A DNA stretch of 63,942 bases, the filler included, from Collodictyon triciliatum (Eukaryota): NCBI GenBank assembly GCA_043381765.1. It is 4 parts of 4 records of this genome, joined end to end, with 100 filler letters (N's around TTAATTAATTAA, not from the genome) between each part and the next. Parts side by side here need not be neighbours in the genome. Positions count along the whole stretch, not along the records: positions 1 to 20,547 come from JBHJMP010001229.1; 3 more parts are not named here. One strand, given 5' to 3'. How positions within the stretch are numbered: position 1 is the first letter of the stretch; each line of letters begins with the position of its first letter. The notes below the pieces were generated by a model. The model had not been told where the DNA came from. It did not search any database and was given only the letters and a program-made list of their open reading frames with translations. Positions 1,491 through 46,227 of the stretch are shown here, piece by piece. The position numbers and the translations under genes are program-made.

Positions 1491-3950
1491 ATGACAAACG
1501 ACACACCTGTTCCATTGCACCTGTTGGCCCAAAGCTTTGTGCACAACTTTTTCAACCTTCGCATCTTAATGCATTTCTGCAGTCACATACCCAGATACAA
1601 TATCATGCACAAACGTCTATGTGATACATGCATCAATAGCGATAGGCTCACAGCAAATGTGTCCATTCTAATCCTATTTTCATTTACGCACCTTCCACCA
1701 CTTCAGTTAGATTACTCTGTCAATGTAGAGACAGCATCCCTGCACGAGAGGTTTCACCTTATACTGGGATTAAAGTTACAGGAGCATTGTGACAACATCC
1801 TTGCCGAGGTAAATACAAAGGAAAAAGGAAAAGAGAGGAGAAAAAAAAAAAGGAAAAGGGTCATGTCGAATCATGGTTCTTTATCATAACTTAATATTAA
1901 TCTCGCTACGTCTTTTACAACCTAGCTTCACACAAACAAGTCCAAAGTCTGCCAACAGTACCTGTCTCAGCTAATTCTCCTGCAAAGAAACCATATCTTT
2001 CTGAGTCAATGGATCTCTCGGACACAGGAAACTTTGAGGGCAATCGGCAAAATTCAAATATGCCCATTTCGTAGAAGAAAGAAGCTATCCGTCATTCCTT
2101 TCGCATTCGGATACTTCAAATACAGGCAGGTTGTTCCTCTTGTTGCATCTGAAGGCCGAATTCATATGGAGCATCCTTGTGTGGCATTTCTCCACGGTAT
2201 AAAGCTACCCACGCAGATGTGTACTTTAACTGGCCTTGTATCAACCAGTATACCAGAGCAAAAGCGAAAGGTTTGTCGTATAATGAAAATGTTCAAGCCG
2301 ATACACGAGACTTCATTGTCCCATGCATCCTACCCATACGATTTTGCACAACATCCGGACTCTGGGGATTTCTTTGTCACAGACTTTGCAAAACATCATT
2401 TGCTCATTGTGTCATCAGACTATCAAGCAACCAAAGTGTTTGGCGAGAAAGGGTCGAGTCCAGGGCAGTTCTTGAACCCAACCGGTGTTGCATTTTCACC
2501 GAGAGGCATCCTAGCTGTAGTTGACCATGGAAACCACCGTGTTCAGCTCTTTGATACCCACCTGGCGTGTATTCATGCATTTGGCTCATTTGGAAACGGA
2601 CCCAATATGTTCATCCATCCTTCTCTTGTTGCGTACGACCGGTTAGGTCATCTATACGTCACAGATATACATACAAAGACTATCCAAAAGTTTGACGGCG
2701 ACGGAAACTTCAAGGAAATCATCCATCAAAACCACATCCGCTCTGCTGCAGAGAAGCCAGTTTACAGCATCACATTCAACTCAAAGACCGAATTTTATGC
2801 CTGGTGCCTGGATTCAAACTCGATACAGGTGTACAACCTTTCTGGTGCGCTCGTGAAGGACATTTCACTGGCGTTTGATGTTCCGGGAGGCTCTCTTATC
2901 ACACTCACATGCGGACCCATGGACACTGTTTTTCTATCTGACAATCAAAATCATGTCTGGCATTGCACATCAACCGGGGCTCTGATTGGCAAGCATCCAT
3001 TTTTAGGCCCATCAAAAGCACTAGTATCAGGGTTGGACAAATTGTACACCCTGTGCTCCAACACAAAATCTCTGATTTTTGGGAACTGGACTTGGGATGC
3101 AGAGAAGCAGAGCACCCATGACCAGTTCCTCGGGAGGCCAAAGAAGGTTGTTGGTGGAAATGGCTGCAGCCAAGGCCAGTTGAAGCGGCCAAGCTGCCTC
3201 TGCATTCACCCAAAGACAGGCGATGTTTATGTGACAAACACAGGCAACCACCGCATCGACGTTTTTTCACCGGACCTTGCATTCAAGGCATCGTTCAGCT
3301 GCTCGAAAGGCAAGTGCAGTGCGTTGTATCATCCTTTTGGTATCTTCATTTCTCCAGACGGCCAGACAATTGGAGTCACTGACTACGGCAACCATTGCGT
3401 GAAGCTCTTTGACGAATCCTTTAACCTGCGGCGCGTGATTGGGTCGAAAGGGGCGGATGCTGGGCAGTTTGAGCGTCCCTCGGGTGGGTGCTTTGATGGA
3501 CACAACAACTTTTACGTAGCAGACTCTGGCAACAGACGCGTGCAAAAGTTTACTGCGCTGGGCGAATTCCTTTGCATGTTTGGTACAGAGACGTGCAGCC
3601 GTGACCAAAAGAAAGAAGACATTTGCAGTGTCTATGTGGATAGAGACAACTGCGTTTCTGTGGTTGGATCTGGGTGCACGCGAATCCGCACATTCTGCGG
3701 GGACGGGCGTCACGTTGGGGATTTGAGAATCGAGCAAACTGGCTGCAGGAGCATCTGCTTCTTGTTTGAGGGAATCGATGGTGGCTATGCAATCTCTGAT
3801 GCGGCAAACAACCGGGTGATGTTTTATTCAAGGAGCTCTGGAGAAAAGCTGGGCGAGTATCCTCACGCGTGCCCATCGGGAGGCGCCTTCAATGCTGAGG
3901 GCGCGTTTTATTTGTTGGGTATGGATGACCACTCGCTATCTTTGATATAG
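1491..3950 (+). CDS. NHL-repeat protein with two NHL propeller blocks and a Cys/His-containing N-terminus (TRIM-NHL-like)
   Basis: NHL motifs FGEKGSSPGQFLNPTGVAF...VVDHGNHRVQLF, GSKGADAGQFERPSG...YVADSGNRRVQKF. The 638-aa ORF stays open upstream to an acceptor at 1925 and splices in phase 0 to the exon ending at 1808 (...HCDNILAE|LHTNKSK...). Start codon uncertain (1491 or 1569). Confidence 0.8.
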
Positions 3951-5986: not shown

Positions 5987-8900
5987 TTAACCGTCATCAT
6001 CTCCTTCCTCATCTTCGTCATCATCATCTTCATCATCTCCTTCACCATCTTCTTCCTCTCCTTCCTCTCCATCTTCATCATCTCCTTCACCATCTTCTTC
6101 CTCTCCTTCCTCTCCTTCTTCATCCTCTCCTTCTTCCTCTCCTTCTTCCTCTCCTTCTTCCTCTCCTTCTTCCTCTCCTTCTTCCTCTCCTTCTTCCTCT
6201 TCCTCTTCTTCATCTTCCTCTGCTTCGACGGCTTTTTGTCTCCATTCCTGAGCCTTCTCCTTGCTCATATCCACACCCCATCCATTCTCGTAGCACTTTG
6301 CCACCATTATAGCTTGAGGACCAGTAAAAGTTCCCTCTTCACAAAACTTGACAAAGTCTATATCATCCGACACCGCACCAAGAGAAAACAACAGTCTTTT
6401 GTTAAAATCGCTGAGTCCTTGAGTTTTCTGTAGCTTGATGCTTCCTCCTTCCAAGTATCGCAGTCCAAATATACGAACTGTTCTTGCACCGGGTAAAGAA
6501 ATGCCGCTACTGTCTGGAGCCAGCGAAGTCGTGCTTTGCTTTCGAGGCCTGCCCTCTTTCCCGTTCGCCGACTTTGTTGCCAAAGAGAGTTCCCAGACAC
6601 GCACGATGTCATCCACACCTGCAGAAGCAAGCCATTTCTCTCCCTTGGGCCCTGTAACATTGCTTAGCTTATTAACAGCGCCGTCATGGCCTTCAATTGT
6701 TCTAACCTGCGCTCCAGTGGCCAAATCCCAGACAAGAACCTTGCTGTCCTCGCTGCTGGAGGCCAACCATTTTTCTCCATTCGGTCCGTCAATACTACAC
6801 ACAGACTTGAGTTCTTTTGTGAGCCCCTCAATCGTTTTGACTAGAGAGCCATCTGATACATTCCAGATACGAATTGTTTTGTCAATGCTTCCAGAGGCCA
6901 GCCAGTTTTCGCCATTTGGCCCCTGGATGCTGCAGATGGACCTCACTTCGTCTGTGTGGCCCTCGAGAGTCTTCACATGCGTGTTTGTCGATAAGTCCCA
7001 AAGACGGATTGTAGTGTCGCTGCTTCCAGACGCCAGCCAGTTTTCTCCACTCGGCCCTTTGAGGGAACATATATCAAAAACTGTGCTCGTATGGCCTTCG
7101 AGACTTTTGACTTCACTGCAGGAGGCCAAGTCCCAAATGTAGATGGTTTTTTCTCCACCAGCAGACACCAGCCATTTTTCTCCACTTGGCCCTTGAGCAT
7201 CACACATAGTCCAAGCAGTGTGTGTATGAGTCTCAAGAGTTTTGACCTCTTTCCATGAACTCATTTCCCATATACGTATCGTTTTGTCGTCGCTACCAGA
7301 TGCAAGCCATTTCTCGCCATTCGGGCCCTCAATCCCGCACAGGCTCCATATTGTATCAGTGTGAGTATCCAAGGTAGCCAACTGCTTCCCACGCTCCAAA
7401 TCCCATATGCGAACACAATCATCATTTCCGCCAGATGCCAGCAATCTTTCTCCTTGTGGGCCTTGAATATCACAAAGAGCCCAGACAGATTCGTCTGAAT
7501 GCCCTTCATCCCGACCAATCAATTTTACAGAACTATAATCCCAGAGTTCTATTTCTCCACCCTCGCACCCAGTGGCCAACCATCTTTCTCCGTTAGGACC
7601 ATTTACGCTGCAGACACTGGAAATGACTTCATGATTGCTTTCCAAAACTTTAACCTGATTTCCCGTACTTAAATCCCAAATAATAAGTGTCTCGTCTTCA
7701 CTTGCAGATGCCAGCCACTTTTCTTGGTTAGGTCCTTGGAAGTTACATATAGAGTTAACCGTATCAGTGTGTCCTTTCATAAGCTTCACTTGACTGCTAG
7801 TGGCCACACTCCATATTCTAACAGTATTGTCGTCACTTCCAGAAATGATGTAATTATCCCCATCAATGCTCTCGGTACTGCATATGGAAGTTACCCAATC
7901 TGTATGTCCTTTCATATTTTTAACTTGAGTTCCAGAGGCTTTGTCCCAAACGCGTATTGATTTGTCGTAGCTCCCCGATGCAATCCAAGCTTCTCCGTTT
8001 GGCCCTTTGACATTACAAATACTGGTAACTTGCTCCGTGTGGCCTCTGAGTAATTTCTCTTGCTTACCGGTCGCTATATCCCAAATGCGAATAGTTTTGT
8101 CTTTTCCTCCGGAAATTAACCAGTTTTCTCCATTCGGTCCTTTTGTGCCAGCAACTGTTTTGACCCAGTCAGTGTGCCCCTCCAATGTCTTCAAACGATT
8201 ACCGGAGGCTAAATCCCATATCAGAATGTAAGTGTCCCTACTGCCAGACGCAAGCCACGTCTCTCCATTCGGCCCTTGAATATAACATGCACAAAGGACA
8301 GCATCTGAGTGGTCTTTTAAAACCTTGCTTTCTCTGCCCGTCGCTATATCCCAAACCCGAACGACTTTATCATCACTCGCAGAGATCAACCAGTTTTCTT
8401 GATTGGGACCGGATATGTTGCACATGCAATTGATGGTGTCTTCGTGATCCTCAAGGCTTTTGTAGGGAATTCCAAACTTCACATTCCTCAGAACTGCACC
8501 GTTGAATATCGCATGGCTTAAAACAGAGTTGGTAAAGTCTACACCGTCCAAGTTGCCGCCTGAGAAGTCGACTCCGTCAAGAATAGAGTTGCTGAGATTT
8601 GCATTTGGAATTCTAACCTTGGACAGGTCCATCCCACTAAAAGTGACATTCATGAAATTCAGCAATGTAATTGCATCAGAAGCTGCCCTTGACTTACTTT
8701 CGTCGCTCCTTGACAAGTACACAATCTCAAACAAATGAGAAATTATTTGCTCTCGATTCCATCTGCCTTCTTCCTTAAGATCAGGGATGGTTTCTGTTAT
8801 GAATTCTTGATATTTAGTAAACTCAATGGGCTCCTTAATCATTCCGATGATTTTGGAATGATATGATAGATATTCACAGCAGAACAAAGTCTTTGCGTGA

Positions 8901-11900
8901 ATCCATCCGAGCTTCTGTCCGGTATTTTGCATCATCTCGGTCCAGAAATCCATTCCTTCCTTATGGAGCTCTTTCTCAATAAAACTCCCGCCAATATGTT
9001 CGCAAGCATCCCATGTACCGACAAAGTCGTGGCCGTAAAGTTTACCAAACAGATGAATCAGATGCTTGTGTATTTCGATAATCAATTCGTGCTCATCCTT
9101 GTCGACAAACATTTTGGCCATGCCGATGCACTGAATGCTATCCTTCAGCGACGTTCTTGTCAGGGTTTCGTTACGGATTTGAAAGGCTTTTTGAATAAAG
9201 TCAATCGTTTGGGCGTTGCTACATTTAAGTGGAGAATCAACTTTAAGATTTCAATGTATTTTCCTTCTCTATTAGCTTTATTATCATAAATAGTTATAAA
9301 GAAAAGAAAAAGAAAAATATCGTGGAGATATAAATCAACATTTTTCACAAGAATGCTTATTTAAAAAAAATTAAAAATACTGCACAGGTATTATAGTTAA
9401 TAGATTCAATTTAACTCCGGATATACAGAAAATGAATATACCTTCCCAACTCAAAGTTTGCACGACCTACATTCTCAAGAGATTTTGCGTAGTCAGGATG
9501 GGCTTCCCCAAGAGTTCTTTTACGAATGTCTAATGTGACGGTATACGCAGACAAAGCTTTCCGGTATCTTTGATAAATAAAGATCCATTAATAGTCATCA
9601 ACATATGAATAAAGCATTTATTGCAGAAAAATCATAGCTTGACAAATGACAGATAAAATAAGATTCTTTAAGTGAAAACTGTTCGCACTCTTTCAAATCA
9701 TGATTGATATTGCCAATCATCTCATATCCATTGACCACATTGGGGTGATTTTCCCCAAGTTTTTCAACAAAGATCTTCACTGACTTATTGAGGCATGTGA
9801 GGGCTTCTGGTTTTCTGATTATTTTTTAAAATTACTTAGCCTCTGACTTTTTTAAATCGAATAAAGGGAAACTTAGACTATGGCTTCAAACCGAATGGTA
9901 AGAAAAACTAATTGAATGTAATTTAAGTGTTTCATTTTTGAAAAGAAAATGTTTTATTGATGATTCACCTTCCAGTCTCGATGTAAACGTTTGCTAGGTA
10001 TCCAAGCACAGAGGCAACTGATGGATGCTGGTCTCCGAATGATTGCTCAAGAATATTTCTCGCACGTTCGTATTCCGATATGCATTCATCATACCTGATA
10101 AAGTTTAGCATTGATAGACTCGCAATCATTCTTTGTAAGATTAGTTCTTTCCATCCTCCTCACTCCCCTCAAAATATGTGCAACAAAAGCTATTCCTTTA
10201 AAAAGTAAAAGAGACGAACGAAAAAATTTACCTTTTCTCAGCAAAATAGACATGCCCAAGATTCTGAAGTGAGGCGGACATTAATGGGTGATCATTTCCG
10301 ACTTTTTTTGATCGAATTTCCTTTGCCAGTTTATATTCTTTCAAAGCGAGTTCCATTCTTCAAAGTTGATTTCTGTTAGAATTTTTGGCCAAGGAGTTTC
10401 TTCGATTGTTACAGATTTATTATGTATGATGATAAAATTAGTATTGTGGCATTACTGATTTTCTAATAAATGTATGTCTCCAAGACGGTCATGTGACTGA
10501 GCTACGGACAAGTCGTGCTCCCCATATTTTTGCAAACGCAGTTCAAGTGACTTCTTAAATTCGTAAAGTGCTTCGCCTAACCTAAGGTAGTGTTTCATTA
10601 TAATTTTTATGATGGATGATGGATTATAATAATAATAATGATAATAATAAATAAATACAAGATTGAAATATTGCTGTTACTTGTTCTCGTTCATGTACAA
10701 AGATCCAATTTCTTGATGAAGAGACGATATCAGATCGATGTTCTCTTGTTCCCGAGATTCATTGATGTTCAAACACTTCAAAAGATAGGCCTTAGACTCT
10801 TCCCAACTGAAAAAAAAAACCTTAATATAGGAAAGGACACAATTTATTTTAACTAATTATTTATATTATAAGCAATAAAAAAAAATACTTTTGGAGATTC
10901 TTGTAAACACAACCAAGGGCGAAGTAGTCATCAACCTTGGACTCTGTATAATGTAGTGTTTCAGGTGCATATTTCTTTTTTAGGATAAAATATTTAAAAT
11001 AGATGATTGATGAATGTACAATATGGACATACCTTCTGATGGTCGTTTGCTGATTCTTTGTGTGACAGTGGAAAGTAAGAAAGAGTTTTCATACATCTCG
11101 AGAAAGAATCTAACCAGCAGATCACCAACTCTATTGGTTGACTGAGAAATTCATGTGTTAACGTGTATTATTATAATTATATTTATCTAACGCTGTCAGT
11201 AAATATTTTAAAATAGTTAAATGAAACTAAAAAAATAAAAATGCAACCTTAATGAAATGGGCGTAAACATCCTTGTAATTCGTGAGACCTTTATCATGTA
11301 TGGTTCTCCAGCAATTGACAAATTCATAACGATAGCGGCCTTCTAGCATCAGAATCACAACCTGAATTTTATTTTCTAATTTAGGATAAAAGGAGAAAAA
11401 AAACATCATAAATAATTTTTTTTAAAAAAAAAAAGCTGTTGCTTATAATTGTTTTTTTCATATCAGTCATCCTGAAAAAAATCTCATTACGTGCTCTTGC
11501 TTAAGGTATTCCACAAGCAAGTCATAGCTTTCTCCTCCCAGTAATTGATAGCAGATTTCGGCAGCCAGTTCCTCGTCAACTGCAGTGTCCCCAGAGTATT
11601 CACTGAAGAGCCACTCGCCCAGATGTTTCTTAGTCTCGACCAATGCTTTGTGCTCAGAAAGAAAGTACCTTTCCACGGTCTCTGCCAAAAGTTGATGGAA
11701 GTACATATATCTAGCGAAAAGTTAGGGGAAATTGTGCTTCAGTATGGACGAATATTCAAGTCATTCGACCATTCTATGAGTCCAATAAAAGGCAAAAGTT
11801 TATTCAAACCTTCCATTCCTCACGAACAAGGATTCAATCAGTGTAAAAAAGAACGATTTCCTTTTTTTAAAAAAAAAAAATAATGTCATTAGGCAACAGA

Positions 11901-14900
11901 ATTCAACGTAGGTATCTGATTGATAGATGATTTTTGTAAAAAAAAAAAAAAAAAAAAAAAAATAATAATAATTTGGAACTGAAATAGACAATACGAGCTT
12001 AATATATGCTTATACCACTCGGCGTGCAAGAATTTTTTTCCAATCATGTCCTCCATGTAAAGGTCTAAGTTGGCTTCGCTCAGTCCAATACGCGTGACAT
12101 ACAGTGTTTTCATGGATATATCAACCATAAGGGACCCTGGTTTGATAGTTTCAAATGTAAGTTGGTATGTAGTACTCAAGTCAAGAGTAGGATATGTTCC
12201 AGTGTTTAAGAAAAAAAAAAATTTACTGTGTATCGAGCCATACCATCTTTGTTGAACTTCTCCTGCCATCTCTTGATGATGAACTGATAAAGATCGATAA
12301 CGCCATCAGTTGATAAAAGACTGTTCAGTTCCTGATCAAGTTTCTCATATACCCCAAAGACTCTAATTTCGTCTAGGACTATTCGAAGGTACAGTGGGTG
12401 ACCTGAAAATTGGAAATAAAAATAACATAAGTAAGCGTCATTTGAACTTTGAAATAAATAAAACAAAAGTAAAAATAAAATAAATTTTTGAAGCTTAACA
12501 ATTGTGACACCTGTATCTTCGCAGTCAAATAGTATCATATTCATCTGCACTTCGCTTAAAGTCTTGTCGTAACGATAAAGAAATGCTTCGGTGCTTTCTT
12601 TGACCTCCTCGACGGTAAGTCTTAAAACAGGGATGGTCTCCAGGCCACATTCAATGGCCATCTGAAAAAAAAGAAAGATTACAGGTATATAAAGCTAATG
12701 ACAACCACATGATTTCAATCAATATCAACATTTAGATATAAATAGCTTACTTTACAAGATGAGTGAGTATCGATGGTGGAAACAACCAAAGCGACGTTTT
12801 TTGGTGCCTTTTTTGGCAGCCAAGTAAGAAGATGAGGCATTGGAGTCTCTTGAGAAGGGTGAATTTGGTTGATAGCATCAATAAGGAAAATGTATTTATC
12901 GTCTCTATTTTTAAACAAATGTTAGTAAAGGATTCGTTTTGAATATTATTTCATTCTCAGAATGTATGCTGATATGTGGCAACGTGCCCACCCACCCTTT
13001 ATTTTTCTGGATGAGATCAAAAAGGCCTTGAATCCCTTCTTTTGAGAATTCTGTGAGAAAATAAATGAGCATTTCATAGCTTCAGACATAGAATTGAGGT
13101 TTAAACATGATCTTCCCATTCTGTTGGATGGCTTATCTCGTGAAAGAAGTCGAATATACGAAACCTTTTTCTCCTCCATAGTCCACTGTAGAGGCATTTA
13201 TGTTACCCAAAACTAGCTTCCAGAAACGAATCGAGATGCTTTTTAAGTGGTAGAATTAGATTAATGGGTGCCGTTTTTATTTTCCTACCATTTTTGCAAT
13301 TAAGGAGTCGGCGCAGTTGGCACACTATTAATTAAACATATTCTGCGTTTACAAAACTATCTTGAAAAAAAAATACCTTTCAACATAGTTGCTAAGGTTT
13401 GTGCATCCAACGAAATGATAAGACAAGTTCAATCCTGGAATATTCATGCTTTCTAAATCTCTCACTGCAGCAGCCATTAATGAAGATTTTCCTATTCCCG
13501 ACTTTGCTGCTAGCACAGTGATATTCACGCCATCTTCTCCGAGCTGATTTAAAGCCTGCATTTCCAGCAAAACAAAACAAAAATCAACAAAGTATTCATT
13601 AAATTAAGCGTTTGTTCATATTTTTATGTGACATAGATATCGACCGTTCAGATTGAATATTGTTGGAATGATTACTTGGTCACATATGTTTTTGAGGAGT
13701 TCCTTGCGACCTCCAAAACCAGCAAGTCTATGCATTTTAAACTGGTGATGTGCCTGGTCTTCGGGGTCCCTGACCTAAAACAGTAAGAAACTGCTTCATC
13801 AATCTGTCTTTCAGTTAATCATAAATCCAAAAAGAAAAGGTGAATATATATATATCATTTTAAAACCTTCAAATTGGAGAAATCTTTCTTCATGGCGAAA
13901 GTAAGGTGATAGGTTATGAAATCAGAATATTCTTTTGGTCCTTGGTATACGACATGTCCAAACTTGGCTTTCACTTTTTCTTTAAGCTCGTTTTGGCTCT
14001 TGCGCTATTTTTCCAATTTTTTGGTATGAAACATTAATTCTTCGTTTCAAAATATCAGGTAAAATAGAGATAAAATAGACAAATTTATGAAAAGAACACA
14101 CAGCCAAGTATCAAGGCCACATACCGCTTCCTCGCTTTCAGATTGGAAGAGCTTCTTCTCTTCTTCACTGGCTGCATGCGAAACTGCATATTCTTCGTCG
14201 CGAAAGTAGAAAAAGGCACGACTGCAAGCTGGCTTATCAATTAATGCGGCAAATTGAATCTATTTGTTTTCAATTTAGTGAATGAAACAACTAGATTCAA
14301 TTTTCGTTACAAAAAAAAATGAATTCAAATGAGGTATTAAAAGAACCTCGTATTCGGTGACACTTAACCCAGGCATAGCATTTATGAAAGGGAAGCGCTT
14401 GTTTGTCTCTGTACGCCATTCTATCCAGATGTCACTAAGCTTTGCTTCAGGTTTCGTACGTCTCAATTCTTCGAGTCTCTCTGCCATATTGGCCTCCGTC
14501 TTGTTCTGGTCTGGAATCCATCCGTATCTAGCTCCGAGTGAACAAACAAAATAGGGGCATTTTTCAATCGAATCAAGACAACGGATAACAACCTATGAAA
14601 GAATTGTAAATTTAAAGGCGTGGTGGGAAAATATGATTTATTTAAGAAAAATATTAATTTGCAATTGCAATATTATGAATACAGTAGTGTACCCATCCTT
14701 CGTTGCTGTCTTTGGATGTTAACCCCCAACGAAGGTCTATGAAAACAAGCTCAAAGCCAAGCGACTTTGCCAATTTTTTTAATCTAGTAGTTACATAATG
14801 ATGAAAATTTAGGTATAAAGAGCTTATTTAAGGTCGTATATATTGAATTTAGTGATGCAAAATTAGTTCCCACTCGACTGCACCGGTTTTGAAGAATTCA

Positions 14901-16397
14901 TCACGTTCCTTTTGCATGTCACGAAATGTCGAGGATAAAAAAACTCTGATAACCCTTTCATCAAAGATAACCATATCTAAGGGTTTCGGTGTAGTGTATC
15001 TTTGAGGTGCCGGCGCCCATTTTTTGAGCCTTTTTTCTTTCATGGTTTCGATATTGCTATTTAGCTACCCCGATATAACAGGAAAAGACCACAAAAGCGT
15101 TAATTCTTTGCGGATATTTGTTGTTTAAAGTATATGTTGTTTTGATATATATTTAAATCGTAAACAGGATTTAGTGAGCTTCAATATGCGTCTACTATGG
15201 ATATTCATTTCGTGTGGCATTTTTCCCAAATAAAAAAGGAAGAAGACTCACTTTATCCATGAGAATGCATGAGCGAACCAAAACAATAGATCCCTTTTCT
15301 TCCGCATCTAGGTCTAGATAATTACAGTTAATTTACATTATGAGGGATGGTTTCAGAATTATTGGTATAAATAGCATGACACAGGAGAATGCAACTTTAA
15401 TGGAATATCAACCTTCAAATGGAAATGGGATTGCACTCCTTTGGAAAATCTTCTTGGCTTCTTCATACCTGGCTTGGGACATGTGCTAGTAGAAAAAAAA
15501 ATTCATTATTAAAGTGTAGGTGTGTGCTTTCGATTATTGTGTGTCATTGAAATGTTAAAGATACCCCGAACTTCCCAAGATGGTTGATTGTCTTTTCCAT
15601 GAGAAGCCATAGTAAAGGCTGAATGAGATCTGATAGCAAACAATAATATTAAATTTTTCTATATTTATTTAAGAGGAGAGGAATATTTCAAATAAGTATA
15701 TCGTCAAACTTGCTCATATTGCAACTTAAGTGCGTCATGTATATATAACAGTCAAGATTACTCTGAAAAGCATCCTCTTGAGTTTCCGAGGGATTTTTGT
15801 CGGATCTATGTTTATTGAACCAGCCATGCACCATTTTCTGGTTCTCCTCTACCAAAGATGACTCGACGATTGGTTGATCTCTAATATGTGATTTTCGATA
15901 TTTAAAATGGAGAAATTATACACATTAAATATAACAAATTTTTCTTTACATTCCGTGATATCAATATATACTTAAATTTGAGTATATGTTGATAGCAGTC
16001 CGAATAAAGGTTTAATTTTCAGTCATACTTGTAAACATCTGTTATGTATACAGAGTATAAAAGTATCATACTATAATACAACCATTCAATATAATATTAC
16101 GCGAAAAGGCGAGAGTGGTAGTCCTTAAAGCTTTGACCGGTGGTAATGTCGATTAGCATTATCAGAAAAAAGCCGTCTTGGAAGTCATCCATGACATTCT
16201 TAGCGACCAAGTCAATCTTCCCAAGCTGGTAATTGACCCATTGCAGAAGGGCCTGCATTGAAAAAAAAAACTTTGATATTTCATATGGAGCAAAAGATGT
16301 TGTTTTGGCGTGTTGCAGTTCTGTGTATATGATATACAAATATTCATGATGCTGCGGGACGTACCTTGTCGACAGCACCTTCTGACTCAGAGCCCAT
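5987..16397 (-). CDS. Multi-exon NLR-like/STAND protein: CH domain - DUF4062 - NACHT/AAA-type P-loop NTPase - 6 TPR - pentapeptide repeats - 14 WD40 - Sel1-like repeat - acidic tail
   Basis: Spliced by eye. MGSESEGAVDK|ALLQWVNYQLG...DDFQDGFFLIMLI and LIQPLLWLL (CH); IRVFLSSTFRDMQKERD, IDLRWG, LGARYGWIP, SVTEYE (DUF4062 as in TEP1/NPHP3-like proteins); AAKSGIGKSSL (Walker A); YIFLIDAINQI (Walker B); GHPLYLRIVLDEIRVFG; six 42-aa TPR exons; phase-2 junction 9442/9218 leads in frame into the 1044-aa ORF. Confidence 0.85.
5993..6220 (-). repeat. Coding low-complexity repeat (EEEG/DE-rich acidic tail)
   Basis: Tandem 12-nt GAAGAAGGAGAG-type units encoding EEEGEEEG...DDEDDDDEDEEGDDDG. Confidence 0.9.
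15956..15997. repeat. Imperfect 42-bp palindrome in an intron of the NLR-like gene; near-copy of 20105-20146
   Basis: TGATATCAATATATACTTAAATTTGAGTATATGTTGATAGCA; 5 differences from the 20105 copy. Confidence 0.8.
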
Positions 16398-16776
16398 TCT
16401 CTAGTTGAAAAGAAAGGTGTTCTATCAGAGAGCTTTTACGTTTGATTATTAGACGTATAGCTTTATCCTCGTTCATTTTGCATCAAATGAAGGGGAATAG
16501 CAATATATTTTCCAGGGCAGAGGCATAATTAGCCGTCATTTTCGGCATGGTGTGAAAGGCATGGGACATTAAGGACTTTTGTGAGAAAAGGAAGAGTTTG
16601 AGGGGAATATGCATATACGTTTGTTTGCATCCCCGCCGATTAACCAACAAGTCACAACACACGATTCGATAAAAGTGACTCTGCGAGCGAATCGCTTGTT
16701 TTTTTTTTTTAATTTACTTTCTTCTACCAAGTCACTTTTCTTTGACTCCTATGCGATGTGATTCAATCACAATCTC

Positions 16777-16818
16777 AGTCATAGTCACAGTCACAGTCGC
16801 AGTCACAGTCGCAGTCAC
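16777..16818. repeat. Hexamer tandem repeat, AGTCAC/AGTCGC/AGTCAT x7
   Basis: agtcat agtcac agtcac agtcgc agtcac agtcgc agtcac. Confidence 0.9.
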
Positions 16819-16930
16819 TTTGGCTCATCTATCTCGTCCGTATAGATGGTGACTTTGTGACAGAGGGTTATGGGCGGAAAATAAGAAAATAGGTTCGCAA
16901 ATGGAACTGGCAAGAGTCTAATAAATACAG

Positions 16931-25300: not shown

Positions 25301-28300
25301 CACGGAATGAAATATGAACACAGGTGTCAACATGGTGTCTATCAGTATCGATGTGGACTCCAACCATCACATCAAATCCTTGGAGATTGTATGAATCCAT
25401 TTTAATTTTATTTTTCTTTAATTTTCTTTACCATCACACAAAATTCGCACAATCTTTGTTAATTTGTGCAATTGCCAATAAGTAGGCATATTATATTCGA
25501 TAATTCGTAGATTGTATTCATTATATATTCATTTCATTTTCTCTATCGCACTAGCAACAACAAGGAGACGTCGTGCGTCCACATTATCTTAAACTTGCAT
25601 TCTTTGAAGAGGAAAATGGGATGGGTAATTTTTTTGAACACAACACCATGGAGGGATTCCCCTTGTTAAGTTACTCGTGTTCTTCAAAATATATGATAAG
25701 TTATTTAAATTTTGAATTTTTTTTTTTAAAATTAACAGTCCATGAGAGAGACGTGATGCCGATCAAGTTTGCCAAGCTTTCAATAACAATCGACCATCTG
25801 CATGGAAAAATGATGCCTTCATTTATATTCCCCAATTATGAAGACACGGGTATAATCAACTCAAATGATTTATGTCATCAAAATAATGACATAGACCCTA
25901 TCGTACAACATATTTACTAAATATACTTGTGTCTTAATGCGGGTTCTTATAGTTTATAATTGAGTTTTGTATATGATAATTACTTTATGTTTATCAGGTA
26001 TGTTTTCTGTCATAATGGACCCGATATCCCTTGCATACACACTGAAAAACTGCGACAAGATAACCCACAGGCAGACAAAATATATGATCTTCTCTATTCT
26101 CCACGATTTGAGCGGGAATGTAAAGAACCTCAATTTTTCCTTTTGATTTATTTAAGATGCAGTATTTGACCTTGGGTCGCTACAATTAACGCTTTATCTT
26201 AAAGTCGGATTTTATGTATACTTTACTTGATTTAACTCTGAAATGGATTGTAGTCTGATCCAAGCAACCTCGATGATTACGAAGCTGAGAATCGTATGCA
26301 AGAAGTAACTACAAGATCCGGTTCCATAGGCCACAGACAAAAAGTGGAATATGGCTCAAACCCTAGTGATGTATCGCAAGCGAGCATTATCAGAGTTGCT
26401 GTTGAGTCTTATATTGAGCTCCCATCTCCTGCTCTCTCATCGCATGTGCCAACCTCATTAAGACAAGAAGATCAATCGCATATATCCAGTGAAGTGCAAG
26501 CACATGGTATGCAATAGGAGATGGATGGGTTTTTTTTTATTTTCGTCGCCCAATATACGGATATATGTACGTATGTTTATATAGATTTTACGTTAATGTA
26601 TAATGGCTAAACTTTACAAAAATTTCGTCCAAATTTGTAGGGGTTATAGTTGGTACGATGAGGGGAAGAAATCATGCGGATGCTGTGAATCATGAGCCTT
26701 GTGTTTCGAAAAGTTGCTCTGAAACTGATTCAGACTCAGACAGAGGCCGTAATTCGGGCAGCGAAGCGGATAACAGGCCAGCCAATAAACTAGTCCGAAC
26801 AGATGGTGCATACCAACCGAAATCATGGGGTGAGGATAGCACCGATAACCAAACAAGCGATAGTGGAACATACATAAGCTCTGATTTCGAGACAGACGAA
26901 CTTTCTGGAAATGAATTTGAAACCAAAAATCGTGATGAGGAAGGCACTCAAGACGAAGGCGCCGGTTCACATAATTCTACGATGTTTGAGGGTTCAGATG
27001 ACAGCTCTTCGAGCTTTGGAGCTGAATCTATGGATGATGTCGCACTCTATTCGAGTGAAGCCCATATGAGTGAAGGAAAACACGTCACAAGAAGCTTCGA
27101 TGATTTGGTTCCGACTCTGAACTTGGAACGACTGGATACATATATTAAACACGAACCCCAGCCAAACGTGAGCCAGAAACCCATCGTTATCCCTGAAAAT
27201 GGAGAAGGAAAAAGAAGAGGACTGGTTCGTTTAGCAAGTGCTGTCTATAGTAAGAATGAGGATGTGTATCATAAATCTGTTGAATACGGGGAAACATTTA
27301 TTCAGCCTCATAATCGCCAAAATGCAGACCCAAATACGACTACAGTTATCGCTGCAGAAAATACTCTGGAATCGGCGAAGCAATACAATCAACCAAAAGC
27401 TGCACATCAATCTCCACAAATATCTACTAAAAGCCTTGGTATGATGAACTCAACAGATTATCCCGAGATAGTAGAAAAAGGCCATTTGAAAGAGCACCTG
27501 AGCTGGGCAAAAATCAATGTTGACAGTATTTCGTATGTCAGAAACTTCGAGTTGTCGCATCCATTCAACATCTCGCTACTACCTGAATCAAGTTCAGTGT
27601 GGGTAGAGGGATTAAAAGAGCATCTTGCAATTTTACAAGATGGGGTACACCGAGGCATCATGCGCGTTGTAGATGAACAGACCAAGAAGTTGTCCGAATT
27701 GGATGAGAGTTGGATATATCGTGACGGATATACAACTCCTTTACATGTTGCTGCGACTATGAATTTTCTAGAGGTCGCTCAGCATCTTCAAAGTATGGGG
27801 GCCTCTTTGCTTCTAAGGGACCGTGGAAATCAAAAACATACGGAAAACAAGATATGTAACAGACTGCAACAGAGTGAATGTGTTTATCAAGAACCATATC
27901 AATTACCAATAAAAGGAAATAAACCGTTTCACAAAGACGCTATCGTGCCAATCGCAGATTATTCAGCGGTAGATTTACCATTTCTACACCCCACAAAAGG
28001 CACACTACATAGTATGAATGCATCTAGCATCCATGGACATAGAGGTAATCACCAGCAAACACATGACCAAACTTTGCAGGGGCAATGGACAGCAGCCCCT
28101 GCTCTCGAAAAATTGGGCGGGTTTACTCCAATACACATGGCGGCACATGAGGGGCATACCGTTTGGCTTACCCAGATATGCCAGTCCTTGACTCAGGCAG
28201 GAACTCATGACGTTATATTTGCAACAAGTTCTGCCGGATGGAGAGCTATTCATCTCGCAGCATTCATGGGTAGAACATCGACAGTCAGATATCTACTTGA

Positions 28301-30323
28301 GCTTGAGTCCCTGGCATATGAGATGCAACACAAGTTTCACCCAATTCATACGCAAACAAACTCAGGGCGTTCAAAAAAAGAGGCAGACTACAAACAAAAG
28401 CCTAGTCACCGAGATGCTCATTTCCTTGAAAATACACAAAACTCTAAAAGCGTCGATGCATATGTGGAGAAAGATATCGGGCCTCGTGGATGGACGCCTC
28501 TGCTCCTGGCGAGCATGGCTGGCCAACTGGAGACTGTGCAAGCCATTCTAGACTTTGGAGTGGATACACATGGATACGAATGGATAACAAAACAGACTCT
28601 GATTCAAGCGCATGGCAAGAATGCTTTGGAATGGGCTGCATTTCATGGATGGGTCGACATAGTGCAGACATTCATCGAATATAGATGGCCAATATCAAGC
28701 AGAGTGCGAGGAAAGACGTATACACATCCTCTACTTTGGGCTTGTCGTGGGGGTCGTCTGGAAGTTGTTAAATCACTGTTGAGGGCTGGTGCAGACCCGC
28801 TTTCACCTGCTCCAGATGATGGTGGACATATGCTTATACATGGCCTTATTTCAGCAGCGATAAATGCGTCGGTTTCTCAATTACGTGCCCAGTGGAGTCA
28901 ACCGTCCCAAGGAATGCTTCAACCCCTAAGCGTAAAATAAATAACTCTTGCAGATCTCGTTGTTTTTTCTTTTTCAATATACAAATGTTTTGTTTGTGAA
29001 CTCATCTCACTTGAATGGTTTTTAGGTCGTGGCTAATGAAGCAAATTCTCTATTGTCCTCCGTATGTCACGAGCTCCATCAACTAGCGTGCTCATCGCCT
29101 ATAAAATATGCAAAGTGTCTCGAGGCTCTGAATGCTACAGATAGATATGGATGGACTCCCCTTCATTGGGCAGCCCGTGGGGGTTATTCAACCCCTGAGG
29201 CAATTAAAGTTCTCCTCCGGCTTGGTGTGGAGACAGATCCAAAAGATGCAGTAGGATGGACCCCGCTTATGGTTTTATTGGCTAGCTTTCTGAATCCTGG
29301 CATGCTGCAACAAGGAAACCATGAAGATAGATACGAAAAAGAAGACGCATTCCTAGAAGAGTATTCTTCATTGTAATTTGATGCACGCATTCTTTTTTGT
29401 TAAGCTAACCACTGCTAATATGAATCTCATCACCCAATAGGGCTTCTTTCAAAACAAATGTAGATAGATTCGACGTGGTTGGTCAGAAGCAGCAACCCAA
29501 ATCTCGTTGGGAAATCAATGATGTTGTGCGGCAAGCTCTTGTGCCTGAAGTCATCGCGGTGATAGAGGAACTTCTTCGGGCCGGCGCCAATCCAAACAGC
29601 ACTTCTGGCTATGGCCTCAATCCATTGGACATTGTGAAACAATCTGCGATTGCCGGGTCACCAAGGAGTGTTTGGCAGCCCATTACAGCTGTTTTACTTC
29701 GATCTGGGGCAAACAGGCACCATACCCGGTCATTCATCGTGGGTGAAGAAAACCAAAGTAGAACAAGCACAATAAGGCAAACAAATTCGACTGCAGAACA
29801 TGGCACAGCTTTGTCCAAAGTTGTACAAGAACAGATATCGATGAATAATTCTTTATTGTCTCCGCATCGTGTGCTGCCAGAAACTCAGTACAGCAGTCAA
29901 AGTCGCTCGTATGCACCATCTGCAACCACAGAAAACTTGCCGTTCTTTTCAGGGAAGAAAGGAAAAGAGTTTCATAGCGCAAGTATTCCTTGGGTGTCTA
30001 GCTTTGCAACGTCTGCTTCTGTTGCACCCACGGTGCCCAAAGTAGACTTCGATTGGGGACATCGGCATGTAGGAACGCTGGCACAGGTATCCACAAATGA
30101 GGGATATGGGCTGAACAGGAGCTGGTCTTATTCATCCACAAACCCTCTGACAGGCCAAAGGTCTTTATCATCTGAATCAAATCCGCAACGAATTCGAGAT
30201 TTTTATTTGAACACTTCGGCAAATAAAAGTCCTAGCGAATCAAAAGTTTCATTCGGCCGGCCTCGCTCAGGAGATTTTCAATACGCTACCATCCGACAAC
30301 CAGCCTCAAAATTCGGTAAATAA
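22392..30323 (+). CDS. Inactive M1 aminopeptidase N (actinobacterial PepN-like) fused to ankyrin repeats; ~19 exons, roughly 1,850 aa
   Basis: PepN motifs ANLSFAEGQSR, YYTDFK|PFDAYGLFPCFDQPD, APNDWIVVGN, FPFEKLDIVLVP, WWDLWLNQ, AK|GAAV, WWECWVYTEGVN, VRPHYLKL, FPNYEDTGY. Ankyrin motifs GYTTPLHVAA, GFTPIHMAA, GWTPLLLAS, GWTPLHWAA. Splice phases are consistent throughout if an 11-nt exon (26205-26215) is included. Confidence 0.75.
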
Positions 30324-43346: not shown

Positions 43347-44030
43347 ATCCAAACCAAGGAACTTTGCAAGTTTATGACAGAATGCCACGTTGGCGAAATG
43401 CGAAGAGACAGCCATAGAGTTCTATTAGCAGCGCTGTCAATTTACACAGTCGCATGCAGATTCCAGATCATTCGCTACTTAATCGTAAATGTAAAGCATG
43501 ACATTATTCACGCAATATTGTGGCACCAAATCAAAGAGGAAATCAGACATGCTTTAAGAAATGAAAGAGAGGCTCTTGATTTGACAAAGAGTTGGGCTAT
43601 TCAAGTGTTCAAAAACCAAGTGGATGAACTTCTTAAAGAAGATAGTCTTGTTGACTCGATTGAAACTGCATTGGGGCTGATGAATTGTTTGCGATTTGTC
43701 ATCATAGCTGACCGAAGCGATGTGCTCCGTCTCAAATCCAGTGGATTTGTGTCAGAATTGAAATCCTCTGTATTAAGACAGCTTCGAAGCAAAGTGGAGA
43801 CTAACTTAGCAAACACAAGACTAGCAATCCAGGCAAAGACAGGAGTTACAACTATCGAAACGAAGCAAATCAGCACTCCAGAGAACTCACTATCGCAAGA
43901 CCAATTAGAGTCCGATCAAATCCAACTCATGAAGCAGCAGTGCTATCAATTGGAAATACTGGAAGAGGTTTTAGATAGACTATTAGAGTCTGTTATAATG
44001 CTATCTGAAGATGCAGTTACACGATTGTGA
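41009..44030 (+). CDS. Glomulin/ALF4/Ybp1-like helical protein (multi-exon)
   Basis: MSEWQLFK...FHES|VNVQDF...; KASNPRENIMEL; FMTECHVGEMRRDSHRVLL...RFQIIRYLI...AILWHQIKEEI; ALGLMNCLRFVIIAD. These resemble glomulin/ALF4 conserved blocks. Confidence 0.6.
41838..41919. repeat. (TTTA)n intronic microsatellite
   Basis: Directly visible. Confidence 0.95.
43279..43345. repeat. (AAT)n intronic microsatellite
   Basis: Directly visible. Confidence 0.95.
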
Positions 44031-46055: not shown

Positions 46056-46100
46056 CGCGCTCCTTTCCGCCTCGGGCGCGTCTGTGTTGGCCTACTGCAT

Positions 46101-46227
46101 GTTTGCTTTTGTTTGCTTTTGTTTGCTTTTGTTTGCTTTTGTTTGTTTTTGTTTGTTTTTGTTTGCTTTTGTTTGCTTTTGTTTGCTTTTGTTTGCTTTT
46201 GTTTGCTTTTGTTTGCTTTTGTTTGCT
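46101..46227. repeat. (GTTTGCTTTT)n repeat
   Basis: Directly visible. Confidence 0.95.

Follow-up and report, generated by a model that had tools for sequence, protein, structure and literature searches.

How does a single protist gene come to carry two kinds of repeat, and is it a single gene at all? The window analysed here is a stretch of 63,942 nucleotides from Collodictyon triciliatum. In an initial annotation, open reading frame fragments on its minus strand had been joined into one frame, read as an NLR-like protein with both TPR and WD40 repeats. Is the joining genuine? What would the parts do? Are there really two sensors? Judged from its sequence, 16397..5987 is a single intact protist gene, predicted to encode an NLR-like switch protein. 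The exon model was built by hand from three-frame views and guided by P0010 of Diphylleia rotans, with which it is collinear. It starts with an ATG at 16397 and stops with a TAA at 5989-5987, all of its introns (30/30) are GT-AG and 79-223 nt long, and the product has zero internal stops. The exons and features are as follows.

5987..16397, minus strand: whole gene, 31 exons, 6831 nt of CDS, 2277 aa
Minus strand, exons 1-8: 16397-16365, 16252-16101, 15880-15762, 15629-15565, 15485-15413, 15313-15252, 15064-14874, 14783-14693
Minus strand, exons 9-16: 14592-14347, 14259-14125, 14004-13867, 13774-13676, 13555-13377, 13238-13165, 13050-12996, 12904-12751
Minus strand, exons 17-24: 12661-12511, 12402-12244, 12136-12016, 11860-11810, 11710-11491, 11361-11248, 11141-11033, 10943-10889
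Minus strand, exons 25-31: 10806-10681, 10581-10456, 10357-10232, 10094-9969, 9814-9689, 9567-9442, 9218-5990
15565..16252, minus strand: calponin-homology (CH) domain, exons 2-4, model aa 12-123
14957..15485, minus strand: CH-NIR linker, exons 5-6 and the start of exon 7
14125..14956, minus strand: DUF4062/NIR TIR-like putative NADase domain with C-terminal extension, exons 7-10, model aa ~205-389
11033..14004, minus strand: pre-NTPase helix region and STAND (NACHT/NPHP3_N-like) NTPase with helical/winged-helix part, exons 11-23
9442..10943, minus strand: TPR arm, exon 24 and six 126-nt phase-2 exons, each one 42-aa unit
9219..9441, minus strand: intron 30, 223 nt, gtatat...tgtag, the junction proposed in the initial annotation
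8651..9218, minus strand: seventh TPR-like unit and all-helical linker domain, model aa 1201-1390
8471..8650, minus strand: pentapeptide-repeat beta-helix, ~60 aa, model aa 1391-1450
6590..8473, minus strand: fourteen WD40 units of 42-46 aa, model aa 1450-2077
6509-6589, minus strand: low-confidence spacer between WD40 and the C-terminal domain
6230..6508, minus strand: conserved C-terminal domain with one Sel1-like repeat, model aa 2105-2197
5990..6229, minus strand: acidic E/G/D low-complexity tail, 80 aa

The TPR part meets the WD40 part at the junction of exons 30 and 31. It had been proposed that the last TPR exon ends GGA AG at 9442 and that an acceptor at 9219 supplies 1 nt and 32 codons in frame with the 1044-aa WD40 ORF, and both ends are found exactly there. 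The donor reads ...GGAAG/gt with 9442 as the final exon base, the acceptor reads ...tgtag/C (AG 9220-9219), and the exon starting at 9218 gives the one nucleotide, followed by 32 codons (9217-9122) in frame to the ATG at 9121. An in-frame TGA (9253-9251) lies 11 codons upstream of the acceptor, and the terminal exon has no ATG between it and residue 33. Could such a fit arise by chance? Exons 25 to 30 are each exactly 126 nt long, the length of one 42-aa TPR unit, and 6/6 start in phase 2, and so does the terminal exon, which picks up at the same point of the TPR repeat. Homology to D. rotans P0010, P0011 and P0009 begins at terminal-exon residues 2-7, the earliest start, at residue 2, lying 31 codons before the first methionine. 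The phase and length series, the homology ahead of the methionine, the open 31-exon model and an alignment with P0010 that is ungapped at both E6/E7 and E30/E31 take the 9442/9218 junction beyond chance and, as far as sequence can tell, it is real. The CH part is joined to DUF4062 across a canonical, in-frame intron of 187 nt (gtgagt...tag, E6/E7, 15252/15064) within a linker 35.8% identical to P0010 295-375, and this junction is supported because a single P0010 alignment spans it ungapped. The fragments thus join in one frame, with coordinates and frames as first written.

Might there instead be two or three separate genes whose in-frame splices are coincidental? Their units would be a CH gene from 16397 to ~15197, a DUF4062-NTPase-TPR gene from an ATG at 15043 and a pentapeptide-WD40 gene from the ATG at 9121. 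Read-through of the exon 6 donor does meet a stop after 21 more codons (TAG 15199-15197), and the two ATGs are available, one 7 codons inside exon 7 and the other within the big terminal ORF. However, D. rotans homology crosses both junctions without a gap and is already present upstream of ATG 9121, CH and NIR share one ORF in 2 independent Trinity genes, DN6756 (P0010) and DN2288 (P0034), TPR, linker, pentapeptide and WD40 do so in 5, and the terminal exon carries on the 126-nt phase-2 series, all of which makes separate genes very improbable. A pseudogene, that is, an unexpressed or decaying member of an expanded family, would be another way to read the locus. NLR-like expansions often include pseudogenes, and the searched protein collections gave no self-match for the window protein; yet 6831 nt stay open over 31 exons, the splice sites are canonical throughout and the conserved motifs are intact, so that decay has hardly any probability left to it.

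Is the layout peculiar to this single intact gene? It is otherwise seen only in transcripts of D. rotans, a freshwater protist, represented here by the Trinity transcript ORFs of EukProt EP00002 (P0010/P0032, 2619 aa, P0010 being a complete ORF; P0034, 2401 aa; and the partial forms P0036, P0011 and P0009). The model and P0010 align in one blastp HSP (model 10-2083, P0010 187-2299) with 47.3% identity over 2122 columns, and overall identity is 47-49%. Ten segments are shared (CH, mid, NIR, pre-NTPase, NTPase, TPR, linker, pentapeptide, WD40 and C-terminal domain); P0010 and P0034 hold all ten in the same order, and the partial forms hold five or six of them, those at the C-terminal end. NIR and NTPase are 60-71% identical to P0010, as against 38-44% for the TPR, the linker, the pentapeptide, the WD40 array and the C-terminal domain. 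P0010 has ~186 additional residues at its N-terminus; a matching exon could not be located in the window, where the 5' end of the gene is a predicted one. It further differs from the window protein in its 19 WD40 units and the missing acidic tail. The D. rotans family is multi-copy, with a paralogue, P0035, that has a different tail, and its members may be paralogues rather than orthologues of the window gene. The architecture had not been recognised when first annotated. This still holds for the literature, where no description of it, or of the unannotated D. rotans ORFs, was found, but it does not make the gene a singleton, as the layout is conserved in at least five D. rotans Trinity genes. 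The broad class of NIR-NLR-like proteins is already described; this particular architecture was not found described.

What are the parts? In order they are CH, linker, NIR, a NACHT-class NTPase, 6-7 NPHP3-type TPR, a helical linker, a pentapeptide beta-helix, two putative WD40 propellers, a Sel1-like domain and the acidic tail. The CH domain had been placed ahead of DUF4062, and a single CH of the alpha-actinin/filamin CH1 kind indeed stands there: exon 2 alone matches Pfam CH with E 1.1e-4 (22.8 bits, under the cut-off, which is 26), P0010 189-284, which shares 36.6% identity with the segment, itself scores 42.9 bits, and among solved structures the CH1 domains of alpha-actinin and filamin come closest (E ~1e-5). 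Actin binding is predicted from this likeness. Pfam DUF4062 matches exons 7 and 9 (exon 9 alone, 26.8 bits; cut-off 24.7), and the segment is 71% identical to P0010. The suggestion that it is a TIR-like candidate effector agrees with two 2026 preprints, which show that DUF4062 is a TIR-like NADase (NIR) and that, in eukaryotes, most proteins carrying it are NLR-like with the NIR at the N-terminus, TEP1, NWD1/2 and NPHP3 among them. The window gene has the motif S-V-T-E-Y-E at model aa 338-343. Across 17 aligned NIR domains, 16 keep the second Glu of S-x-T-E-x-E, those of the window gene and of three TEP1 sequences among them, and 13 keep the first. The preprints give E1008 as the catalytic Glu of the human TEP1 NIR; because this residue maps to 1007 or 1009 in the macaque TEP1 sequence used, which Glu of the motif is catalytic has to be inferred. 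The window gene and P0010 also have a 24-aa NIR insertion missing from P0034, P0035 and TEP1. Would the domain cleave NAD+? As toxicity in E. coli is reported there for TEP1's NIR only, among 5 eukaryotic NIR domains screened, NADase activity of the window NIR cannot be assumed and the domain is best treated as a candidate.

The NLR/STAND-like layout first proposed is backed by a P-loop (Walker A), GIGKS, in exon 13 (13555-13377) and a Walker B, IFLID, in exon 16 (12904-12751). Exon-level Pfam matches to NPHP3_N, nSTAND1 and NACHT are weak, exon 13 reaches only E 0.25 against NB-ARC, and P0010, 60% identical over the NTPase segment, lies just under the cut-offs (NACHT 25.3 vs 26.7, nSTAND1 24.5 vs 27.1, NPHP3_N 23.0 vs 24.8 bits). 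The NIR-NTPase part of P0010 (375-1100) does match TEP1 orthologues, at 23-27% identity (E ~1e-25 to 3e-15) over 67-91% of the query (at least 75% in most rows), and its matches to metagenomic DUF4062-NACHT-TPR proteins reach E 1.6e-53. Since Walker B is followed by A-I-N-Q in place of the acidic pair usual in NACHT, nucleotide hydrolysis may be slow or absent.

The TPR arm is 42% identical to P0010 1074-1387, for which TPR_12 scores 136.5 bits and the NPHP3-type family PF24885 is listed. The helical linker, 38% identical to P0010, forms ten helices across terminal-exon residues 2-188 in the AF2 model. It has only three strong relatives among 1.84 billion representatives, all from D. rotans, and its weaker matches include TPR proteins (2 that were looked up are so named, and 8 match the window TPR segment by blastp). 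Of the remaining annotated modules, the pentapeptide region scores far above its Pfam cut-off (51.5 vs 20.2 bits, E 6.9e-14), with a predicted beta-helix that has a strand each five residues (terminal-exon 197-250, AF2 model), and the WD40 units do number 14 (Pfam WD40, 322 bits). These can be read as two seven-bladed propellers. The terminal-exon model (mean pLDDT 82) runs from helices through a beta-helix and 14 blades to a small helical domain; the structure it matches best is 2ymu, a double propeller with 14 blades (E 1e-47), and it also aligns over 844-895 columns with full-length Apaf-1, whose propellers have 7 and 8 blades. Of the Sel1 module, what stands is a conserved domain with a Sel1-like repeat: it is 44% identical to P0010 2523-2612, is found in 5 D. 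rotans proteins and is modelled as four helices (pLDDT 77-92). As a Pfam Sel1 it falls below the cut-off (one repeat, 14.5 bits vs 30.7, E 0.057), and the Atlas lead is weak (score 0.92; Sel1 in 15% of cluster members). Counted over the window gene and its D. rotans relatives, TPR units number 6, 6, 6, 5 and 6 in the five genes bearing the array, the gene with 5 detected units covering the same 251-aa span as the six-unit arrays, and WD40 units number 14, 19, 11, 12, 7 and 31. A fixed repeat number is compatible with ligand binding by the TPR.

Are there then two sensors, as first claimed? This is not demonstrated. Because the WD40 count ranges from 7 to 31 and the TPR count is fixed at six, the WD40 array appears to behave like a sensor that varies, and the TPR like an arm that stays constant. 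In a true dual-sensor receptor, TPR and WD40 would each bind a different ligand and two cues would be integrated. Both repeat classes sense in other STAND proteins (Avs TPR and Apaf-1 WD40), TPR (42%) and WD40 (41%) are similarly identical to P0010 and more diverged than NIR or NTPase, and the tandem arrangement is preserved in 6/6 family members that reach that far. Against this, besides the constant TPR number, the TPR occupies the position of the helical spacer of Apaf-1, TEP1 and NWD1, and outside the family matches to TPR, WD40 and NTPase together occur in only 3/159 collected relatives (P0046, P0053 and P0154), with the TPR N-terminal and non-tandem. A dual sensor is therefore unlikely. 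A separate case is P0015, which looked like DUF4062-TPR-WD40 by blastp; its WD40 was taken as spurious, as the best 25 of its 38 Pfam families are mostly TPR kinds and DUF4062, with no WD40 among them.

How might such a protein work? The explanation considered best, and held to be probable rather than firm, is a 2277-aa STAND/NLR-like switch protein, the product of a single expressed-type gene, with an arm-and-propeller mechanism proposed on the model of Apaf-1, bacterial Avs-NIR and TEP1. In the resting protein, the repeats at the C-terminus would keep the NTPase closed. A ligand on the WD40 propellers, whose repeat number varies among paralogues, would free it, the NACHT module would exchange nucleotide and then oligomerise, and the clustered NIR heads would hydrolyse NAD+, leading to cell arrest or death. 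The fixed-length TPR, the helical linker and the pentapeptide would most likely form a rigid arm or latch joining the NTPase to the propellers. They would correspond to the helical domain that Apaf-1, TEP1 and NWD1 have, and not to an additional, independent sensor. The CH domain would most likely tether the protein to actin or another cytoskeletal partner, as TROVE/vWA puts TEP1 in the vault. Is an immune role, which this scheme suggests, the only one conceivable? The protein could be a non-immune housekeeping scaffold, a regulatory ATPase of cytoskeleton or cilium comparable to NPHP3 (cilium) and TEP1 (vaults, telomerase), with a regulatory or inactive NIR. The CH domain points toward the cytoskeleton, the TPR are of NPHP3 type, and human NPHP3, NWD1 and NWD2 are reported to have shown no NADase activity as purified full-length proteins, while the functions of mammalian NIR proteins are called largely unknown. 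Yet the NIR Glu motif is retained, and a multi-copy family with variable WD40 numbers and a different tail in P0035 follows a pattern seen more often in conflict genes than in housekeeping scaffolds. A scaffold is possible, though doubtful, and the switch protein is preferred.

How does this putative switch compare with known systems? Apaf-1 likewise has an N-terminal effector or adaptor, a STAND NTPase, a helical arm and two trigger-binding WD40 propellers, but its head is a CARD rather than an NADase and its NTPase is NB-ARC. Bacterial Avs2-NIR, Swarozyc and other NIR defence proteins also set a NIR NADase effector on a STAND-TPR sensor and deplete NAD+ when they sense a phage protein; they differ in being prokaryotic and in having a single repeat class, with neither CH nor WD40. 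TEP1, NWD1 and NWD2 share with the window protein a NIR with the same Glu motif, an adjoining NACHT and C-terminal WD40 propellers. These have an Apaf-1-like helical domain where the window protein has TPR, and no pentapeptide, and TEP1, located in vaults, has an N-terminal TROVE/vWA rather than a CH. The NPHP3/TTC41-type proteins and the metagenomic P0037 and P0038, the best non-D. rotans matches to the NIR-NTPase part of P0010 (E 1.6e-53 and 3.7e-42), likewise have a NIR head, a NACHT-class NTPase and, directly after it, 42-aa KLC/NPHP3-type TPR, though the NIR of NPHP3 fell under the significance threshold in one study. They terminate with the TPR and are without pentapeptide, WD40, CH or Sel1-like domain. 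'Chimeric', as an account of origin, is an evolutionary reading only; in composition, the window protein is an NPHP3-type NIR-NACHT-TPR backbone to which a pentapeptide region, 14 WD40 units, a Sel1-like module and an N-terminal CH domain are added.

In this stretch of eukaryotic DNA, whose introns are short and AT-rich, a 1087-codon open frame on the minus strand (9250..5987, TAA at 5989-5987) encodes a helical stretch followed by pentapeptide repeats, WD40 repeats, a short conserved domain and an acidic tail. Numerous short open pieces upstream of this frame are recognisable as fragments of TPR, NTPase, DUF4062 and CH domains. Do all these pieces belong to one gene? A model built by hand from three-frame views, with a Diphylleia rotans relative as guide, joins them into 31 exons running from the ATG at 16397 to 5990, with a coding sequence of 6831 nt (2277 codons) containing no stops; all 30 introns are GT-AG and measure 79-223 nt. 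Exon chaining by a codon-score dynamic programme gave a first model that was far too short and a second that was over-extended, and a hexamer version was mostly right, yet missed or mis-framed seven exons; the hand model was used in place of all three. Two suspected frame clashes of one base, one in the NTPase part (13377->13324) and one in the pre-TPR part (11033->10974), disappeared with the right acceptors (13238, 13050 and 10943), which were located with P0010, a D. rotans transcript ORF, as guide. An ORF piece at 13325-13289 with the typical look of a NACHT helix is left outside the final model. The open piece at 13325-13207 (minus strand), inside introns 13-14, resembles the helix commonly found after the P-loop of NACHT proteins. 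With neither an in-frame join nor a counterpart in P0010, it may be the remnant of an earlier exon. Intron 19 holds a run of about 27 T (~11935-11962, minus strand), and several further long T or A runs occur in the introns of the gene.

The initial annotation had joined the TPR pieces to the WD40 frame at 9442/9218, and its account of the last TPR exon, the acceptor and the following 32 codons is exact. The last TPR exon has its final G at 9442, followed by gtatat; the AG acceptor of the terminal exon lies at 9220-9219, and the exon begins with C at 9218 and runs for 32 codons to 9121, where the frame has its first ATG. Exons 25-30 measure 126 nt each, the exact length of a TPR unit of 42 residues, and each of them begins in phase 2. 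The terminal exon begins in phase 2 as well, at the same point of the TPR repeat, so the TPR register continues over the junction of exons 30 and 31. Could the big frame encode a protein by itself? An in-frame TGA is found 11 codons upstream of the acceptor and the first ATG comes only at exon residue 33; the frame therefore cannot begin a protein at its conserved start. Residues 1-190 of the terminal exon, searched with HMMER against 1.84 billion representatives, returned 23 proteins at E<=1e-3, only three of which reach 1e-10: P0009 (7e-31), P0010 (5e-28) and P0011 (2e-23), all Trinity transcript ORFs of D. rotans in EukProt. These three matches begin at query residues 2-7, well before the first Met, and the matched region lies deep within long proteins (residues 1375-1563 of P0010, for example). 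By blastp, the model and P0010 form a single alignment (model 10-2083 to P0010 187-2299, 47.3% identity over 2122 columns), and their global alignment is gap-free at the boundary of exons 30 and 31. An assembly chimera is unlikely, since five independent Trinity genes carry TPR, linker, pentapeptide and WD40 in one frame. The phase series, the lack of an early ATG, the upstream homology and the gap-free alignment with P0010 together confirm, at the level of sequence, that the TPR pieces and the WD40 ORF are one spliced gene.

At the other end of the gene, the CH family (PF00307, a profile of ~109 residues) scores 22.8 bits on exon 2 alone against a cut-off of 26, the window having been scanned exon by exon; the orthologous stretch of P0010, 36.6% identical to aa 12-123 of the model, reaches 42.9 bits against the same cut-off. 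Among solved proteins, this segment is closest to the CH1 domains of alpha-actinin and filamin. CH is the only family found N-terminal to the DUF4062 domain, both in the P0010 prefix and in window exons 2-3, the sole upstream exons scanned. Is the CH part truly joined to the rest? Exon 6 ends in GATAAA, followed by gtgagt, at 15252, and exon 7 starts at 15064, giving an in-frame splice whose TAG acceptor (15067-15065) is also the stop that closes the frame upstream. Alternatively, the CH exons could form a separate gene, with the DUF4062 gene starting at an ATG within exon 7 (15043); read-through of the exon 6 donor does meet a stop, TAG 15199-15197, after 21 further codons, but P0010 and P0034 (a second D. 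rotans transcript ORF) hold CH, the same linker and DUF4062 in a single ORF, and the model aligns gap-free through the junction of exons 6 and 7. With CH and DUF4062 read as parts of one gene, how complete is its start? P0010 has 186 residues more at its N-terminus than the model. Searching the window with P0010 1-200 and P0034 1-135 for further exons at the N-terminal end gave nothing above chance, with the sole exception of the overlap of both queries with CH exon 2 at 16252 (E 0.6-1.2). The stop that closes the frame upstream of exon 1 (16403-16401) is itself the TAG of a possible acceptor, which leaves room for an undetected exon further upstream. An imperfect hexanucleotide array of GTGACT/GCGACT units lies at ~16770-16825 (minus-strand view), ~400 bases ahead of the start codon at 16397, presumably in the promoter or 5' region.

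The head of the protein is DUF4062 (PF13271), placed N-terminal to the NTPase and detected at 26.8 bits in exon 9 alone (cut-off 24.7) and at 21.7 bits in exon 7. Two 2026 preprints show this domain, renamed NIR, to be a TIR-like NADase that provides the effector function in bacterial Avs and further defence proteins. They find that eukaryotic NIR mostly heads NLR-like proteins, TEP1, NWD1, NWD2, TTC41 and NPHP3 among them, and give E1008 of human TEP1 as the catalytic Glu. The NIR segment of the window gene is 71% identical to that of P0010, which scores 42.5 bits for DUF4062. Its motif S-V-T-E-Y-E (aa 338-343) aligns with S-V-T-E-M-E in three TEP1 sequences; among 17 aligned NIR domains, 16 retain the second Glu and 13 the first. 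One of the two would be the equivalent of E1008, and with macaque TEP1 numbering off by one relative to human, it may be either. An insertion of 24 residues (aa ~295-318, exon 9, 14592-14347) is common to the window gene and P0010; the paralogues P0034 and P0035 lack it, as do TEP1 and every other NIR domain in the alignment.

The NTPase carries a P-loop GIGKS (Walker A) and a Walker B motif, IFLID, without the usual acidic residues after it. Pfam NACHT, NPHP3_N and nSTAND1 all fall just under their cut-offs, in the window exons as in P0010. The NIR-NTPase part of P0010 matches the NIR-NACHT region of many TEP1 orthologues (23-27% identity over 67-91% of its 726 residues, best E ~1e-25) and, better, metagenomic DUF4062-NACHT-TPR proteins (E 1.6e-53). 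NB-ARC gives at most E 0.25, in exon 13, and CARD was not found by Pfam in the scanned window exons or in P0010. The C-terminal part contains superstructure-forming repeats, with TPR units numbering six or seven and WD40 units 14. The TPRs are of the 42-residue KLC/NPHP3 kind (TPR_12 at 136.5 bits in P0010, for which PF24885 is also listed), and the sixth TPR exon is followed by ~1075 more residues comprising the linker, pentapeptide repeats, WD40 repeats and C-terminal domain. How far may the NADase analogy be taken? According to the portions of the preprints that deal with activity, TEP1 alone was active among four full-length human proteins assayed as NADases in vitro, NWD1, NWD2 and NPHP3 being inactive, and toxicity was reported only for TEP1's among five eukaryotic NIR domains screened. 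These two results, the 24-residue insertion and the atypical Walker B all speak against over-reading.

In the terminal exon, Pfam Pentapeptide (PF00805) scores 51.5 bits (cut-off 20.2, E 6.9e-14) and WD40 scores 322 bits on the big frame. An AlphaFold2 model of the exon minus its acidic tail, made from a shallow alignment of 6 sequences (mean pLDDT 82.2, pTM 0.53), follows the chain through ten helices, a beta-helix with a strand every five residues, fourteen four-stranded blades, a disordered spacer and a small four-helix domain. In Foldseek the top match is the 14-blade double propeller 2ymu (E 1e-47), and full-length Apaf-1 is matched too, over 844-895 columns. The fourteen WD40 units initially annotated are borne out both by the repeat count and by the blades of the model. 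The Sel1 domain proposed for the C-terminus fares less well: PF08238 matches a single stretch at 14.5 bits, below its cut-off of 30.7 (E 0.057), and an Atlas lead to Sel1 (score 0.92) goes to a cluster in which 15% of the members carry it. A single weak repeat resemblance and a lead of this kind allow no stronger label than 'Sel1-like'.

Two other long frames of the window contain recognisable repeats:

1926-3947, plus strand: NHL-repeat ORF, a single frame of 674 codons (Pfam NHL 98 bits), shortly past the 3' end of the gene and on the opposite strand

26604-28937, plus strand: ankyrin-repeat ORF of 778 codons, with ankyrin in its C-terminal part

Residues 1 to ~600 of the ankyrin ORF have no Pfam match, nor do seven other long ORFs scanned in the window, and no functional link between the gene and its neighbours was seen. 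The block of highest GC (0.53) lies at ~44000-46500, where long open frames overlap in several frames and on both strands; tblastn gives chance matches there to a repeated low-complexity translation of the K-Q-K-Q-T-K-A-N-K type. Runs of 44 N, paired 12 bases apart, occupy the filler positions at the record joints (20548-20591/20604-20647, 37808-37851/37864-37907 and 58448-58491/58504-58547; 264 N). A word-index search for long relatives of the linker yielded nothing but unrelated pentapeptide proteins, the 82-aa NIR exon as query matched only one fragment of 167 aa, and tblastn gave no second copy of the gene (0 matches outside the locus) within the 64-kb window. Two sequencing runs, presumed to be RNA, contain 0.34 and 0.28 of the sampled words and a freshwater metatranscriptome contains 0.07, shares that are not taken as a sign of expression or habitat.

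How widespread is this layout? A second search, this time with the NIR-NTPase part of P0010, brought in three more paralogues from D. rotans: P0034, P0035 and P0036. The model was then cut into ten segments (CH, mid, NIR, pre-NTPase, NTPase, TPR, linker, pentapeptide, WD40 and C-terminal domain), each blasted against the D. rotans proteins. P0010 and P0034 match all ten with the order kept; P0036, P0011 and P0009 match the C-terminal five or six, also in order; P0035 has NIR-NTPase-TPR and then a different tail. The closest proteins in the searched collections are those of D. rotans (47-71% identity). Among 159 fetched proteins, 82 combine DUF4062, NTPase and WD40 (mostly TEP1 orthologues), six combine DUF4062, NTPase and TPR, as does P0035, which has the pre-NTPase segment too, and three metagenomic ones have TPR N-terminal to DUF4062-NTPase-WD40. 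In this set the tandem TPR-linker-pentapeptide-WD40 tail occurs in D. rotans only, and the full ten-part layout only in P0010, its isoform P0032 and P0034. Another fetched protein, P0015, looked like DUF4062-TPR-WD40 by blastp; its WD40 match was taken as spurious because the best 25 of its 38 Pfam families are mostly TPR kinds and DUF4062, with no WD40.

What might such a protein do? Judged by position and homology, the window gene most likely encodes an NLR-like switch with a NADase head. By analogy with Apaf-1, Avs-NIR and TEP1, the C-terminal repeats would bind a trigger, binding would release the NACHT module, oligomerisation would bring NIR domains together, and the clustered domains would hydrolyse NAD+. 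But which repeats would bind the trigger? Counted with HMMs built from the window gene's own repeats, WD40 units number 14 in the window gene and 19, 11, 12, 7 and 31 in the rest of the family, and TPR units number 6, 6, 6, 5 and 6, the five being spread over the span of six. The TPRs also occupy the place of the helical spacer in Apaf-1, TEP1 and NWD1. The variable WD40 count and the position of the TPRs suggest that the propellers act as the variable sensor and that TPR, helical linker and pentapeptide form a constant arm or latch. The spliced NLR-like gene with a candidate NADase head is supported; the two sensors of the initial annotation are the less likely reading beside a near-constant TPR count and a variable WD40 one. 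Identity to P0010 is 38-44% in the TPR and WD40 regions compared with 60-71% in NIR and NTPase; since the two repeat regions have diverged about equally, the TPRs could still bind a ligand. A bolder reading, which we regard as improbable, is that Diphylleia and its relatives, a lineage of deep-branching phagotrophic protists, evolved a cytoskeleton-tethered NADase immune receptor, an NPHP3-type NIR-NACHT-TPR protein fused to pentapeptide/WD40, in which TPR arm and propellers take two cues and CH positions a death switch at phagocytic or cortical actin. The cues would be, for example, a pathogen or prey ligand and the state of the cytoskeleton. If true, this would be a two-input NLR, a type without prior description.

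Domain shuffling around STAND NTPases is common. In this family a single chain combines the TPR and WD40 tails, the two types known, with an added CH domain, which makes it a natural experiment on which part is sensor, which is scaffold and where in the cell the protein acts. The curated exon model describes a gene absent from the searched collections, from a part of the eukaryotic tree where sampling is sparse. NIR/DUF4062, whose NLR-like carriers in eukaryotes include TEP1, NWD1/2, NPHP3 and TTC41, gained recognition as a TIR-like NADase only in 2026.

In the fungal NLR surveys, as far as their accessible text goes, the repeat domain is one of WD, ANK or TPR. No published description of the tandem layout was found in the literature available in part: the main text of Le Mouellic et al. 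mentions neither WD40, calponin, pentapeptide nor Diphylleia, and its Table S5 of EukProt v3 hits may list the D. rotans proteins. The tandem layout is likewise absent from the passages on these terms in two eLife papers that combine NACHT, pentapeptide repeat, WD40 and TPR, and the listed papers that name both Diphylleia and NLR concern unrelated matters. A layout seen in one family only, for which no published description was found, argues for a new architectural variant within a just-described class, not a new kind of system. Apaf-1 and the AP-ATPases have an NB-ARC NTPase and a CARD head; in the scanned exons of the window gene NB-ARC reached no better than E 0.25 and no CARD was found. 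TEP1 begins with TROVE and vWA and has WD40 directly after its helical domain, whereas the window gene has CH as the only family found at its N-terminus and a TPR array between NTPase and WD40. The NPHP3/TTC41 type ends in the TPR array only, whereas the window gene continues with linker, pentapeptide, WD40 and C-terminal domain. Its nearest backbone is thus the NPHP3/TTC41 type, and the module added to it resembles the tail of TEP1/NWD.
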